DNA of 59,341 nucleotides, filler included, from Dirinaria sp. TL-2023a (lineage: Eukaryota): NCBI GenBank assembly GCA_051941275.1. It is 7 parts of 7 records of this genome, joined end to end, with 100 filler letters (N's around TTAATTAATTAA, not from the genome) between each part and the next. Parts side by side here need not be neighbours in the genome. Positions count along the whole stretch, not along the records: positions 1 to 8,408 come from JAVEBF010001185.1; 6 more parts are not named here. One strand, given 5' to 3'. Under the pieces are notes generated by a model. That model did no database searches. It saw only the letters and a list, made by a program, of their open reading frames with translations, and was not told where the DNA came from. A program made the translations under genes and the position numbers. This document shows positions 2,779-50,972 of this stretch, piece after piece. Numbering within the stretch: position 1 is the first letter of the stretch; each line of letters begins with the position of its first letter.

Positions 2779-4911
2779 TGTACCTCGTTCAGGATAGCGG
2801 TACGAGCGGAGGCCGCCCATTCCTGAGTTGCTGTTAGGCATTTTTGGCAGATGCTCAGATTGAAGTCGAGGTGTGAGTTGATAACGGACCTGATTGGGAC
2901 GGCTAATCGAACATTCTACACGGATGTTGTAGGGACGAGCCGTGTTTCAGAACCTCCCACACCAATACTCCCCACTAGTGGATTTGTAATGGTCCAAGCA
3001 CCGTCCTATGGACGTATTATTGCTTGGCCAGCAAGTTCTCTCGGACGAGGCTTTTTTAGCTTCTCGCTGGCCTTCACTTCGTGTTCATTATTGTGTTATT
3101 ATCACCAGCTGGCAGCTACCTTCAAATGCTGCCATGTGGCACAGCACACTTGCTTCCATCTCCGCACCTGTGCCGATCGGAATGTTTTCTGGTGGGTCGG
3201 TCGTGAATCTCGAGATCGTCGAGCTTCAGTCTGCCCGGACCCATTAGGTGCCTGTGCTACACACTATGGGAGATATAAGTGTGACACCGTCACCTTAATC
3301 ATACCAAAATTAGTCCCACGAGCGGCCCGCTCGAGGTGACGCAAAAGTTCAAACCATCAGGGTCATGGAGAAGTACTAAGGTACCTTAGTACCTTACCTT
3401 AGATTGGCAATGTTGCATGTTTGCGCAGGTTCGATTGTTCCTGCGTCGGGGCCGAAACCTCGGTCTGAAACCAATCCCTGAATCAACAGCTGTAAAACAC
3501 AAGCGTACAGATATCATTTTTGAGTCTCGAGAGTTTGGGGCAGTATGATTTTGAGGGGCTTTGCGATATACCCTGTAGCCATCGATGCTTATGACGGAGC
3601 GTGTGAAAAGCGCCACGATTGACACGATTGTTACGATCATCGTCTAGATCAGCGGTACGTCGTCAGGCACATCCCCCGAAATGGGTACTGATTGACTTCC
3701 ATCACACTCCACCAATGAAGTTGTTGCGTAGGCGAGATCGGTTAGCTGCTTGGTCTAAGGGAGGTAGCTAACCGTATACGGAGTATAAGAATGCCCGCGA
3801 GTGATAACCCGGCCTTCTTACCTAACGTTTTCAAGACCCTTGGGAATAATAATGCTTTTATCTCAGAAGACTACTTCTTTTCGTCAATTTTCAATTGACT
3901 TGGGAATATATTATTATACTCAGTCGAAAATCTTTTTGCGTCTATGACCTATCGGAATCTGAATTTTGATAACTCTGTCAGGGTCTCTGCAAATGATGTC
4001 ACTACACTATTCTAGAAAATTTCGAAGCTTTTAAATTCGCTCTCAAATGTTGATGTTTTCATTCTTGCTGATGCTCGAAGACCAAGAAAAGGGTCCTGAA
4101 AACGCTCAAGTACCTACCTTAGGTAAATTGTGGGGGACAGGTAGGTAAGGTACCTTAGGTTTCTTAGGGTTCTTCAACCCTAAGGACTCGGTCTAAAGTG
4201 TCTGCCAACTTTGCTGGAAAAGCATTTGGTGGAAAAGCGTTCGCTTCTTCTGAATTACACCTTGCAGCATCTTAATGGCGTGGCTAGAATGTACTCTGCA
4301 GCGCTGCATGAAGATCAGTGCCTGCAACGCCGACTAAATTAGCTGCTCATAACCGAGCAGTAATTGCCTATCACGCTCCACTGAAGTCGATCATGATGAT
4401 CTCTCCAATCCAACAATAGCAGTGCAAAGATCAGTACATCGATTATCACTGCTCTTAATTGTATCTCGCTTTGAGACGACCGATTATACAGCACAATCTG
4501 GACAAGTATTGCGTGGTAAGTCTTGCTACGAGTTGAATCAGTGGATAGTGAAGAATGGGCATGACGTCTCTGTCAATGCCGTATGAGATGCAGCCTGTTT
4601 CTTGTTGTTCGCATTTTTGCATTCAGTATGATGCGCTGACACTATCGAATGTCTTGGACTTGGATTAATTCCAGTGCTGCCTTCTAGGCTTCAGTCCTTG
4701 CTTGAGATTACTGCCACTAGGCTGATCCTTCGCCAAGCATAAGTGCATAAAACCGTTGGACATTTCTTTTTTATACCTGAACCTATTGTGTATCTCGATA
4801 GCGGCACTGGAACACACGGCTCTCAGCTCTTGTGACTGTCTCGAACTATCTATAATACATTTCGAGAGAGCTTTGGTTGCCAAATCATCCTTTCCCCTAC
4901 AGAAAAACAGA

Positions 4912-7854
4912 ATGGAGTATAGCGGCAGCGTATACTCACAGATTCTAGACGATGTCACCAAAATAAAGCTGGAGGAGCTTGTAAAGAAGCGAGCGAGCTT
5001 TGAGGCCCAGCGACAACAGATCATTTCTGGTTCCGAAATCCATTATGATGTCACTAACGCCCGTGCCATTGAAAATCTCGCTCAGATGTTACAGAAAATG
5101 AGAATTTGCTTTGCAGTGTCGACCTCAGAGAGCCAAGTCTCCAGAAGTAGTTCCAACAGTCCAGGCCTAGAGAAAGATCTGGAGAAACATCTGAAGAATC
5201 TCGACCGATTCCTTGCGCAGGCACGGTATGATCCATCGGTGTCTCCAATGCTTCTGCAACAGTGGAGGCAGACTTTGCTTCGATATTTGAAGATACACTC
5301 ATTGAAGCTGGCTTATGCCACGTTATATGGCAATTTAACTGAGGAATGGCTATCTAATATGGGAGATTCTGTGAATGCAACTCACGAGAAGGACTCTGAG
5401 TTGGAAGACTTTGAATACGTTTCCGCTGGTAAACGGGTAGAGTATCGAGCCAATTGGGAGAAGTCAGTATTCGAGGCCTCGAACGTCGACCAAGCCGCCA
5501 TTACCGAGGCGCTTCGTGCTCTATTCGAATCCAAACCCCAAAATTCCAATCATCTCCTCAACGCTTTGACGCATTTGCGCGCAAGCGTAAAAAGCTTCGA
5601 GGAAGAGCTCGCAGAGCCGGAATACTTCACCATTGATACTCTTCAATGGGCAATCAAAGGCCTTATTGCCTCAGACCTCTTGCAAGAAGAGAAGCGTGCA
5701 ACCTTGCGAGACTTCGTTGGGAATGATTCGGTACTCAATGAGATAGCAGACGTACTGAACATGCGGATCGCCGCCCTTGATGATTGGTCGTGGGGCAAAG
5801 AAGTCCTGCTTGAGGAGCACCGCGAATTGAACGGGAATTTCACAATTCATATGCATGAGGACCTTCTACAGGCTATATTCCTTCAGGACATCGGCACCCG
5901 GTGGTCTGTCTTTTGGAAGCATGCCTTCGCGTCTTTTCGCAAACGTAAGGGCGTCTGGAAGATATCGCGGACTTCAGTCGACCACATAGCCAAGAAGCGG
6001 CAGGAGTCTTTCCTACTGGGTATGGACGTGCGTCCGAATTACAGTTCCAGAAAGCAAACTATCTATCGCGAAGGCTATTTTTTGTCACAACTTCTCGACT
6101 CCGAGACCGAAGAAGCGTTTTGCGAAGAAGGGGACGAAGAAGCTAATTTCGAGATGCATGTTGCAAAGCGAGCTATGCAGACAGCCCACCGGAGCACCGG
6201 CAGAAACGCGCCTCGAAAACAGCTAGCGAGTAAAGCTGCTCGGAAAGCAACTCCATCGACGGAGGATATACCGGAAGTTCTTGACGAGACGGAAGACGAT
6301 GACTATGACGGTTCCTATAGACCCAAGAGCAGGATGGAAGCCAAGCAGAACCTGCTTCATCTCCTATCCACGGAGATTCTTATCAAGACCCGGCTACATG
6401 GAGAACTTACCTGCTTTCGCTCCCAGATTGATAATCTATACCCGTCACTTCCACATCGCACCATTGAAACGATCCTTGAATTTTTCGGGGTTTCTAAGAA
6501 ATGGCTTCAATTCTTCGATCGTTTCTTGAAGGCGCCCCTTCGATTTAAGGATGATGAATCCGTAGAGGCTCGCCTACGCCAGAACGGCACTCCGGCATCT
6601 CATGTTCTGAGTGACGTTTTCGGAGAAGTCGTGCTGTTCTGCCTCGACTTTCAGACCAATCAGGAGACAGGAGGAGAACTGCTTTGGAGGATGCATGACG
6701 ATTTCTGGTTCTGGTCCTCTGATCATGCGACATGCGTCAAGGCTTGGGCAAGCATTGGGCGCTTTGGGAGGACGATGGGTATAGGAGTCAACAATGCACG
6801 CACTGGTGCAGTACGGATGCGGCGGAGTTCCAAAGAGGTGGATGATTTAGTGCCACTTGATGTTGGGAGCGAATTGCCTCGTGGACAGATCAGGTGGGGT
6901 ATGCTGTACTTGAATCCAACCTCAGGGCTCTTCGAAATCGACCAAAATATGGTCAATGAACATATTCTCGAGCTTAATCGGCAGCTTGCGAACAAGAAGG
7001 AAAATACCTTTGCATGGATACAAGCATGGAACAGCTACGCAGCGACGTTCTTTACTTCTAATTTCGGGAAGTCTGCGCAATGCTTTGGCCGTCAGCACGT
7101 GGATAACATGCTGGCCACTCACGAGCGCATTCAACGCCAATTTTTTCCATCTTCAGCAGAAAGAACAATCTCAGATGCGCAGGAAAACGGCGGTAGCGTC
7201 ATCGATTACCTAAGAAAGACGATCGAGCAACGCTTCGGAGTCAAAGATATACCCGATGGGTACTTCTATTTCCCATCCGAGCTTGGCGGGCTGGAGGTAC
7301 GTAACCCGTTCATCGGCCTACTGCAAATCCGGGACGCAGTACACGAACGACCCGGTAAACTGCTCGACGACTTCCTCGAGGCGGAGAAAGAGGCATATGT
7401 GCGCGACAAGGCCCGGTTCGAGAAGTTGCGCAGCGGCAATCCCACCACCAGACATCTCCATCCAACGCGGCAGGATCCCGGCTACGACGCCGAAGACACC
7501 TTCCTCTCTTTCAAGGAATACTCGAGTTATCGCGAAGAGCTCCATTACGGCTTCAAAAACGAGTTACTCGAAGTATTCACCACGCTGCTCGAAAGACCTG
7601 CGCCGAAAAGCATTGAGACGGCAGATAACGGGAACGTGAGGAACGCATTGAAGGCTCTTGGCGCCCGACCTGGTTTGCGTGGGGGTATACGGGCGAATTG
7701 GGACTTGATGGAACCGTACTGGAAATGGGTCGCGCAGTTGTACGGGCCGGAGATGATCGATGCTTTCGGAGGCTTTTGCGTCGTCGATCAGAGTTTGTTG
7801 CCGATGGGGTTATTGAGCATGCTGAGAAGTGGGAGGGTCAGTTGGCAGGAGTGA
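4912..7854 (+). CDS. rvt: Reverse transcriptase-related cellular protein (RVT family), 980 aa, intronless
   Basis: First in-frame ATG at 4912 ([27 protein letters not shown], coiled-coil N-terminus typical of fungal RVT). RT motifs: [27 protein letters not shown] (motif A region), [14 protein letters not shown] (motif B'), [11 protein letters not shown] (motif C, MHDD at 6691-6702), IRWGMLYL. C-terminal [15 protein letters not shown] and [10 protein letters not shown]. No gag, integrase, RNase H, endonuclease or LTRs are visible. Confidence 0.92.
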   Translation: [980 protein letters not shown]

Positions 7855-8408: not shown

Positions 8409-8508
8409 NNNNNNNNNNNNNNNNNNNNNNNNNNNNNNNNNNNNNNNNNNNNTTAATTAATTAANNNNNNNNNNNNNNNNNNNNNNNNNNNNNNNNNNNN
8501 NNNNNNNN
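8409..8508. other. Artificial contig spacer (N44-TTAATTAATTAA-N44)
   Basis: Identical 100-nt linker with stop codons in all six frames, seen six times in the window. Confidence 0.99.
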
Positions 8509-16915: not shown

Positions 16916-17015
16916 NNNNNNNNNNNNNNNNNNNNNNNNNNNNNNNNNNNNNNNNNNNNTTAATTAATTAANNNNNNNNNNNNNNNNNNNNNNNNNNNNN
17001 NNNNNNNNNNNNNNN
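16916..17015. other. Artificial contig spacer
   Basis: N44-TTAATTAATTAA-N44. Confidence 0.99.
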
Positions 17016-25416: not shown

Positions 25417-25516
25417 NNNNNNNNNNNNNNNNNNNNNNNNNNNNNNNNNNNNNNNNNNNNTTAATTAATTAANNNNNNNNNNNNNNNNNNNNNNNNNNNN
25501 NNNNNNNNNNNNNNNN
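25417..25516. other. Artificial contig spacer
   Basis: N44-TTAATTAATTAA-N44. Confidence 0.99.
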
Positions 25517-33915: not shown

Positions 33916-34015
33916 NNNNNNNNNNNNNNNNNNNNNNNNNNNNNNNNNNNNNNNNNNNNTTAATTAATTAANNNNNNNNNNNNNNNNNNNNNNNNNNNNN
34001 NNNNNNNNNNNNNNN
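33916..34015. other. Artificial contig spacer
   Basis: N44-TTAATTAATTAA-N44. Confidence 0.99.
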
Positions 34016-42400: not shown

Positions 42401-42500
42401 NNNNNNNNNNNNNNNNNNNNNNNNNNNNNNNNNNNNNNNNNNNNTTAATTAATTAANNNNNNNNNNNNNNNNNNNNNNNNNNNNNNNNNNNNNNNNNNNN
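42401..42500. other. Artificial contig spacer
   Basis: N44-TTAATTAATTAA-N44. Confidence 0.99.
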
Positions 42501-50872: not shown

Positions 50873-50972
50873 NNNNNNNNNNNNNNNNNNNNNNNNNNNN
50901 NNNNNNNNNNNNNNNNTTAATTAATTAANNNNNNNNNNNNNNNNNNNNNNNNNNNNNNNNNNNNNNNNNNNN
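50873..50972. other. Artificial contig spacer
   Basis: N44-TTAATTAATTAA-N44. Confidence 0.99.

Follow-up and report, generated by a model that had tools for sequence, protein, structure and literature searches.

The rvt genes are single-copy, domesticated and non-mobile genes for reverse transcriptase (RT)-like polymerases, and the proteins of this family characteristically carry an N-terminal coiled-coil that multimerises. Gladyshev and Arkhipova are said to have described them in 2011 as domesticated, RT-related cellular genes. One such gene is analysed here in a stretch of 59,341 nucleotides (the window) from Dirinaria sp. TL-2023a (assembly GCA_051941275.1); its product (RVT) contains, in a variable loop upstream of RT motif A, a segment that reads like the N-terminal tail of histone H3. 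Excerpts of the published rvt work portray these genes as widespread, conserved and stress-induced, without a settled cellular role. The same excerpts report that starvation for amino acids and inhibitors of translation induce rvt genes, and that RVT of Neurospora and of bacteria carries out non-templated or protein-primed polymerisation of nucleoside and deoxynucleoside triphosphates (NTPs/dNTPs). The RT group UG37 is equated with rvt elements in a part of Mestre et al. (2022; PMC9226505), and the name loop 2a, for the region between RT motifs 2 and 3, comes from a part of PMC5718144. The window gene shares with the described rvt genes the match to the RT_UG37 profile, the catalytic Asp-Asp and a large loop 2a before motif A (PMC5718144, same part). 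However, those parts of PMC9226505 and PMC5718144 mention no histone-like text in loop 2a, which the orthologue group of the window gene possesses.

Non-histone proteins that imitate histone tails form the other set of systems to which this locus can be compared. Short mimics are known from influenza NS1 (ARSK), G9a (ARKT) and EZHIP (a K27M-like peptide), and the chromatin remodeller ISWI contains AutoN, a short intramolecular mimic of the H4 basic patch that is autoinhibitory. The short mimics and the RVT proteins are alike in that a non-histone protein reproduces part of a histone tail, whether by copying or by convergence. However, the former comprise about 4-12 residues and address one mark, whereas the latter carry about 30-36 H3 residues in register, often followed by about 18 of H4, and do so inside an enzyme and with the lysines as the least constrained positions. 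AutoN is approached through its R-H-R basic-patch text, since RVT orthologues keep R17-H18-R19 at 93-100%, although the H4-like text of RVT is longer, G(K/R)GLG(K/R)GGAKRHRK(I/V)L, stands in an RT-like polymerase and is lacking in the window protein. Further mimics are SARS-CoV-2 ORF8, NOP16 and a set of H3 N-terminal mimicry proteins (PMC8166343). Full-text searches, with the founding 2011 rvt paper and its supplement lying beyond their scope, gave no report of histone-like text in rvt proteins; as far as is known and was found, no endogenous histone-tail mimic would be longer than the RVT segment.

Very probably, 4912-7854 is a complete rvt (UG37) gene whose catalytic Asp-Asp is intact and whose loop 2a holds the descendant of an H3 tail copy ancestral to one orthologue group. 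The features on which this reading depends are as follows.

4912..7854, plus strand: rvt (UG37) gene, intact and intronless, 980 amino acids and a stop codon
6097..6330, plus strand: loop 2a, an acidic-basic-acidic insert of 78 amino acids between the N-terminal region and RT motif A
6097..6153, plus strand: acidic tract 1, 19 amino acids, with an EEGDEEA core conserved family-wide
6166..6261, plus strand: segment like the N-terminal tail of histone H3, approximately H3 residues 1-32, 23/32 identical
6208..6246, plus strand: exact copy of H3 residues 15-27, in codons that are not histone-like
6262..6309, plus strand: acidic tract 2, 16 amino acids
6412..6456, plus strand: motif A-like stretch with a conserved Asp, placed by position and family consensus and not by direct alignment
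6583..6648, plus strand: RT motif B-like stretch, from the family profile aligned to the DRT9-type RT 9ioa_A (E 9.1e-8)
6679..6717, plus strand: RT motif C, containing the catalytic Asp-Asp; 9ioa_A has its YADD motif at the aligned position

The H3 reference was the N-terminus of a real Ascomycota H3, residues 2-39 at the start of protein P0475. Compared with it, the segment shows the same ungapped identity to fungal H3 1-32 (23/32, with H3 15-27 exact) that the earlier note had given from the sequence. The window differs from H3 by A1K, T3A, K4M, R8H, K9R, G13R, K14N, S28A and A29T, and the note's list of kept and changed residues was correct as far as it went. In a phmmer search of a 42-residue stretch against the whole PDB, the best 60 matches listed were exclusively H3 chains or H3-tail chimeras (best E 1.8e-8). 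The likeness to H3 stops at H3 residue 32-36 and exceeds chance. With P0475 as tblastn query, the window gave a single match, at 6169-6270 (E 7e-7), and no H3 gene; the window protein likewise has no match to PF00125 or any other histone-fold Pfam family. S22 and S31 of the segment are of the fungal H3 type, as in P0475, which suggests an endogenous source for the H3 copy.

The same text recurs at the same loop position in orthologues. These were assembled from the 119 best relatives of the window protein and 115 obtained via a Sordariomycete query (234 in all), their loops being taken from the alignment and the H3 score of each compared with 500 shuffles of the same loop. The loops scored above all 500 shuffles in 144/234 cases, and the number of identical H3 residues was at least 15 in 109 of the 234, at least 20 in 57, at least 25 in 29 and at least 30 in 6. 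After thinning to below 75% mutual identity, 70/123 members still beat their shuffles and 53/123 lacked significant H3-likeness. Near-perfect copies exist in P0116 (31 residues in a row) and P0148 (29/30), and the copies in P0108 and P0105 extend to ...STGGV(K/R). The consensus of the family profile (HMMER) even prints a 31-residue H3-tail text in the loop, which aligns to H3 chains. By taxonomy look-up, members with H3 text belong to five classes of Pezizomycotina, namely Lecanoromycetes, Dothideomycetes, Sordariomycetes, Leotiomycetes and Eurotiomycetes. On a FastTree tree of 81 members less than 70% identical and six outgroup rows, computed with the loop removed, every major clade contains strongly H3-like rows, as do the two earliest branches, and the H3-like trait changes state 24 times; the six outgroup rows have a short acidic loop only. 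Loop deletions are present in a handful of members, P0103 and P0142 among them. On the simplest history, H3-tail coding sequence was inserted once, long ago, into an acidic loop that already existed; many lineages then retained it, and in others it decayed. As part of the same high-confidence identification, the H3 copy (approximately residues 1-36) would predate the split of the orthologue group into its lecanoromycete, dothideomycete, eurotiomycete, sordariomycete and leotiomycete branches.

In many orthologues, e.g., P0136, P0192, P0173, P0150 and P0186, the H3-like text is directly followed by G(K/R)GLG(K/R)GGA(K/M)RHRK(I/V)(L/I), which resembles the tail of histone H4 and has no counterpart in the window protein. 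H4-like text is also present at the metagenome loci L027 (183-239 and downstream) and L055. Scored against one such segment, 58/234 loops, and 13/81 thinned members, beat all 500 shuffles. When a 31-residue piece of P0136 was compared with the PDB, H4 chains made up 59 of the best 60 matches listed, with 5w0v_C ('Histone H4 1-34') at the top (E 0.0017). HMMER can align the short form GAKRHR to H3 33-40, but the longer GLG-GG-AKRHRK-IL forms are not explained in this way. Conservation in the H4-like text is high at G14 (55/57), R17 (56/57), H18 (52/56) and R19 (56/56), whereas the equivalent of H4 K16 is Met in 28/57 and Lys in 20/57. It is very probable, under the same identification, that a copy of the H4 tail (approximately residues 4-22) stands behind the H3 copy in many members, and that the disordered tails alone were copied, without the histone fold. 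Among the 123 thinned members, 57 are H3-like only, 13 H4-like only, 11 both and 42 neither; in several of the last, a short remnant (RTKQTAR) survives. A hybrid text, TTGAKRHRK(I)LASKACRKSAPSTGGV, was observed in P0134, P0137, P0138, P0139 and P0145 (Fusarium solani-group and relatives), in which the H4 basic-patch stretch replaces H3 13-20 inside an otherwise H3-like segment.

Selection on the segment was examined in the DNA of relatives, metagenome contigs L001-L063. Over the 13-codon core, the window and L036 are identical at 13/13 residues yet differ in 9 codons, and other distant pairs differ in 7-10 codons among 10-12 shared residues. For the H3-like stretch, Nei-Gojobori counts gave proportions of synonymous differences (pS) of 0.47-1.1, mostly saturated, and of nonsynonymous differences (pN) of 0.1-0.5; dN/dS was 0.07-0.63 where dS was computable (window vs L001, 0.27). 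The pN of the segment is close to that of the rest of the enzyme (0.19 vs 0.20 for L001; 0.28 vs 0.32 for L022) and, in distant pairs, below that of the rest of the loop (0.28 vs 0.47 and 0.37 vs 0.56), the segments having been picked by their H3 likeness, which biases their pN downward. Across the whole gene, pN is 0.20-0.32 against a pS of about 0.8. Since synonymous sites are saturated while residues are kept, selection has acted on the protein and a recent capture of DNA is unlikely. The recurrence at one loop position under protein-level constraint that the earlier note had asked about is thus present, with codons scrambled and residues retained. As a further part of the identification, purifying selection on the protein has very probably maintained the module, which has decayed in some lineages. 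The codons of the segment agree with those described before, i.e., Arg as CGA/CGG/AGA, Ser as AGC/AGT/TCG, Lys as AAA three times and Leu as CTA. Codons CGA, CGG, AGA, CTA, AAA, AGT and TCG would be atypical for a fungal histone gene.

Although the H3-like loops have a common text, its residues are kept to very different degrees. Within the thinned set, the 70 H3-like loops keep arginines in 212/240 cases overall and lysines in 196/365. Individually, the arginines stand at 49/52 (R2), 53/62 (R8), 60/67 (R17) and 50/59 (R26), and the lysines at 41/56 (K4), 35/61 (K9), 33/65 (K14), 26/65 (K18), 35/61 (K23) and 26/57 (K27). Residues Q5, T6, A7, A15, P16, Q19, A21, S22, A29 and P30 are kept at 79-93%. 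The 169 lysine replacements are foremost Arg (54), Met (35) and Gln (32). Interpretations that depend on individual lysine marks are weakened by this marked preference for arginine over lysine. The pairings proposed in the earlier note, of K4M with Set1, K27 with PRC2 and K18/K23 with acetyltransferases, are not supported in that form, as the lysines are the least conserved positions of these loops. A conserved 'oncohistone-like' K-to-M device was also considered and rejected: K4M occurs in only 7/56, L20 is replaced by Met in 14/65, and Met, doubled throughout the loop, is not confined to lysine positions.

The host protein can be assigned to the rvt family, as had been proposed, through the RT_UG37 profile of PADLOC, which matches P0002, a database protein identical over all 980 residues, at E 1.7e-50 (residues 89-801 against profile positions 61-657 of 778), UG37 being equated with rvt in the part of PMC9226505 cited above. 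The orthologues P0116 and P0108 match it at E 2.7e-62 and E 1.8e-58. The sole long open reading frame (ORF) of the region, 4756-7854, is uninterrupted and contains the H3-like segment in frame; though it is open from 4756, the first ATG, at 4912, agrees with the N-termini of the orthologues, which span 100% of P0002. More general searches returned less. Pfam, at E up to 1, gave nothing relevant and no RVT_1 on the window protein, with a non-significant coiled-coil-type trace (LRIM1_dimer, E 0.81). Among ten chosen members, five of which have a histone-like loop, RVT_1 reached its cut-off in one, a sister-subfamily protein; among the five histone-loop orthologues it appeared in P0116 alone, below the cut-off. 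In sister-subfamily members, the RVT_1 match begins directly behind the loop. NCBIfam gave weak matches to group II intron RT or Drt3a, far under the cut-offs, and an ESM Atlas feature search gave 'reverse transcriptase domain-containing' Ascomycota clusters and then telomerase clusters below 0.9. A family profile built from 64 members (alignment A1), in which D596 and D597 are conserved at 90% or more, found as its best PDB match 9ioa_A, a 499-residue 'RNA-dependent DNA polymerase' (E 9.1e-8), with palm motifs B-D and the catalytic Asp-Asp aligned. The codes 9ioa, 9nlv and 9vku occur in papers on the antiviral RT DRT9, parts of which describe it as making protein-primed homopolymers. DRT9 is the closest solved relative by sequence; in contrast to RVT, it is bacterial, works with a non-coding RNA and has no histone-like insert in loop 2a. 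The family profile matches 1672 representatives (50% identity) at E of 0.001 or less and 746 at E of 1e-30 or less. Between 2500 and 10500, no direct repeats were found, but only a weak 28-nucleotide inverted pair and an artificial linker; no flanking repeats of the rvt gene were seen on its own contig, nor was a second rvt copy on that 8.4-kb contig.

Loop 2a varies in length and sequence between conserved anchors, and the segment lies, as claimed, in this variable loop upstream of motif A, flanked by the acidic tracts at 6097-6153 and 6262-6309. The composition and variability of the loop suggest that it is exposed. Over 81 members less than 70% identical, Met (4.3% vs 2.2%), Gln (7.7% vs 4.7%) and Ala (12.1% vs 6.2%) are more frequent in the loop than elsewhere in the protein, and some members contain MQMAQMAQM-type runs in it. 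The histone-like loop is confined to one rvt orthologue group. The outgroup sister rvt subfamily, with proteins of about 850-940 residues, has the short acidic loop only in 30/30 members examined, and the loop with its anchors measures 46-78 residues there against 103-132 in seven ingroup members.

The integrity of the locus was a concern raised in the earlier note, which had allowed for a chimeric join. An RNA-library contig of a related strain spans 6068-6357 gaplessly with 11 differences, and the same feature is found in many independent assemblies, making misassembly unlikely. Within the segment (6187-6237), the related strain differs by H8S (CAC>TCC), K18R (AAA>AGA) and three synonymous codon changes. 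In three RNA runs (X1-X3) from one lichen sample, 12-17% of sampled words were present; their contigs cover 8 to 15 of 30 bins of the rvt gene at 90-99% identity, which is not proof of transcription because DNA carry-over in RNA libraries is possible, and the bins left uncovered carry no information. That the feature is an artefact or a recent event, whether by misassembly, gene-model fusion or gene conversion from H3, is accordingly next to negligible as an explanation. Most long database proteins with H3-tail text are indeed gene-model fusions with a real histone fold, but here the ORF is uninterrupted, no Pfam histone fold follows, and orthologous codons differ from one another and include CGA, CGG, AGA, CTA and AAA.

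In fungi, the disordered tails of H3 and H4 are the nuclear import signals of these histones. As a whole, the best explanation joins the H3-tail copy in the rvt loop to a role in docking, and it is put forward with somewhat less than even confidence. The docking part, which is tentative, holds that RVT would be recognised, through the exposed loop, by factors dealing with free H3 and H4 tails, most likely the karyopherins that import new H3-H4 (Kap123/Kap121 type). The RVT protein, of about 110 kDa, would then reach the nucleus as histones do; the basic island may be masked by the acidic tracts on either side, and the unmodified backbone and arginines would matter more for recognition than modification of any one lysine. 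Lysines drift to Arg, Gln or Met while the arginines and small residues are held, which suggests that recognition is not centred on lysine modification. According to a part of An et al. (2017; PMC5677370), Kap123 binds the H3 1-28 nuclear localisation signal (NLS) via K14 and K23 (12-17 and 21-26 being the ordered residues) and holds H4 13-GGAKRHRK-20 through contacts of R17 and R19, the effect of K16A/Q being mild. Compared by sequence alone with this part of the source, the pieces retained in RVT coincide with H3 1-28/35 and H4 13-20, and the H4 stretch bound by Kap123 is identical with the core that the H4-like text of RVT conserves, although K14, K23 and H4 K16 are often replaced in RVT. 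The H3 15-26 block is also among the best-kept parts. Of the 42 loops without histone-like text, 26 keep a K/R cluster, which likewise bears on the import reading. Karyopherin docking is the first choice because the copied tails are import signals, the H4 cores coincide and H3 15-26 is kept. A Kap123-type NLS calls for H3 K14 and K23 between small residues, or for H4 13-GGAKRHRK-20; of these features, the window copy retains S22-K23-A24 but carries K14N and lacks H4-like text.

Several observations weigh against docking to an importin. The lysines central to Kap123 binding are only half kept (K14 33/65, often Gln; K23 35/61), H4 K16 is Met in 28/57, and the window copy itself combines K14N with the lack of an H4-like part. 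The best-kept block, R2-Q5-A7-R8 (85-94%), lies outside the residues seen in the Kap123 complex (PMC5677370, same part), so an importin alone does not explain some 30 identical residues. A separate K/R cluster could serve as an ordinary NLS: the K/R-cluster motif is matched by 56/81 histone-like loops, in a scan that included the histone-like text itself and so does not show a separate signal. With 42/123 lineages lacking significant likeness, the module is also dispensable in some.

Among the alternatives, the loop may instead be a decoy, pseudosubstrate or regulator, competing with H3 and H4 tails for the proteins that write, erase, read or chaperone them, or undergoing such modification itself, a reading considered rather unlikely. 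Some 30 near-identical residues, including non-basic ones kept at 79-93%, are more than a generic basic signal needs, and the prevalent Arg, Met and Gln replacements have long side chains that could still fill lysine channels. On the other hand, no lysine is conserved above 73%, which implicates no single mark or enzyme, and the Met enrichment is loop-wide rather than lysine-specific (L20M 14/65; 4.3% vs 2.2%). The internal position moreover leaves no free Ala1 amino terminus, which many H3K4 readers need. Cellular mimics that sequester chromatin factors have precedents in parts of two preprints, NOP16 (bioRxiv 10.1101/2023.06.13.544862) and the H3-mimic helix of CODANIN-1, which sequesters ASF1 (bioRxiv 10.1101/2024.07.10.602876). 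Such a decoy would couple RVT to the chromatin state or titrate factors under stress, rvt genes being stress-induced according to the excerpts mentioned at the outset. In a more elaborate version, which seems distinctly improbable, multimeric RVT bearing H3/H4 tail copies, strongly induced on failure of translation or of the amino-acid supply, would enter the histone import and chaperone route as a stress-induced decoy and compete with new H3-H4. Importins, tail-binding chaperones and modifying enzymes would then be contested by a tail whose lysines are often unmodifiable Arg, Gln or Met, and histone supply or chromatin state, perhaps also the site of untemplated polymerisation, would be tied to the stress response.

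It is quite unlikely that the segment matters only as charge, a basic island between acidic tracts acting within the enzyme as an autoinhibitory latch or, near the active site, as a grip on nucleic acid or primer, with its H3 identity merely historical. The acidic loop is older than the insert, as the sister subfamily has it alone (46-78 residues with anchors), and the bias towards arginines (212/240 against 196/365 for lysines) and the survival of K/R clusters in those 26/42 loops that lost the likeness would fit; yet uncharged residues and residue order have been retained over five fungal classes, and the parallel retention of the H4 stretch GGA(K/M)RHRK(I/V) would go unexplained. That the segment is a decaying and now functionless relic, left when histone coding sequence was captured by chance long ago, is very unlikely. 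Its patchy decay (53/123 members without significant H3-likeness), the 24 state changes on the tree and the loop deletions in P0103 and P0142 are what such a relic would leave. However, 20-31 residues are still identical to H3 in five classes despite saturated synonymous sites, and the segment has the same pN as the remainder of the enzyme and, in distant pairs, a lower one than the remainder of the loop (0.28 vs 0.47; 0.37 vs 0.56).

Returning to the docking reading, a selection-kept H3 copy of about 30 residues, joined by H4 in many species, would be the first sequence-level pointer to the partners and compartment of RVT, namely the machinery that imports, chaperones or marks free H3-H4. With arginines and scaffold kept and lysines free, the orthologues would show, like a mutational scan run by nature, which features of the tail a binding partner reads. 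A practical consequence may be that H3 N-terminal antibodies also recognise, in these fungi, a protein of about 110 kDa.

A side search with the H3-like part alone against proteins of 546-1740 residues returned mostly gene-model fusions with a real histone fold. It also returned near-exact, sometimes tandem H3-tail copies beside acidic tracts in fungal VIT/vWA proteins (P0450, P0453, P0473 and P0474), in the SET-domain proteins P0447 and P0486 (with T22, the non-fungal type) and in P0449, P0492 and P0448. No histone-fold Pfam domain is recorded for these VIT/vWA, SET-domain and other proteins. H3-tail copies on other non-histone proteins suggest that H3-tail modules may be a wider phenomenon.

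The window consists of seven contigs, the rvt contig being 1-8408, and the contigs are joined by an artificial all-frame stop linker of the form N(44) + TTAATTAATTAA + N(44). The linkers are located as follows.

8409-8508: linker
16916-17015: linker
25417-25516: linker
33916-34015: linker
42401-42500: linker
50873-50972: linker

Because the window is made of joined contigs, genes across linkers are not shown to be neighbours of rvt. On the rvt contig itself, two long minus-strand ORFs upstream of the gene (449-2654; 442 and 309 residues) have no Pfam match at E of 1e-5 or less. On the other contigs, between 15142 and 57407, Pfam searches of long ORFs identified ordinary fungal genes, for an AMP-binding enzyme, a PPR protein, an arrestin-C protein, ZPR1, the lariat debranching enzyme DBR1, a UvrD-like helicase, a kinesin-3 type motor and a PX-associated DUF3818 protein.

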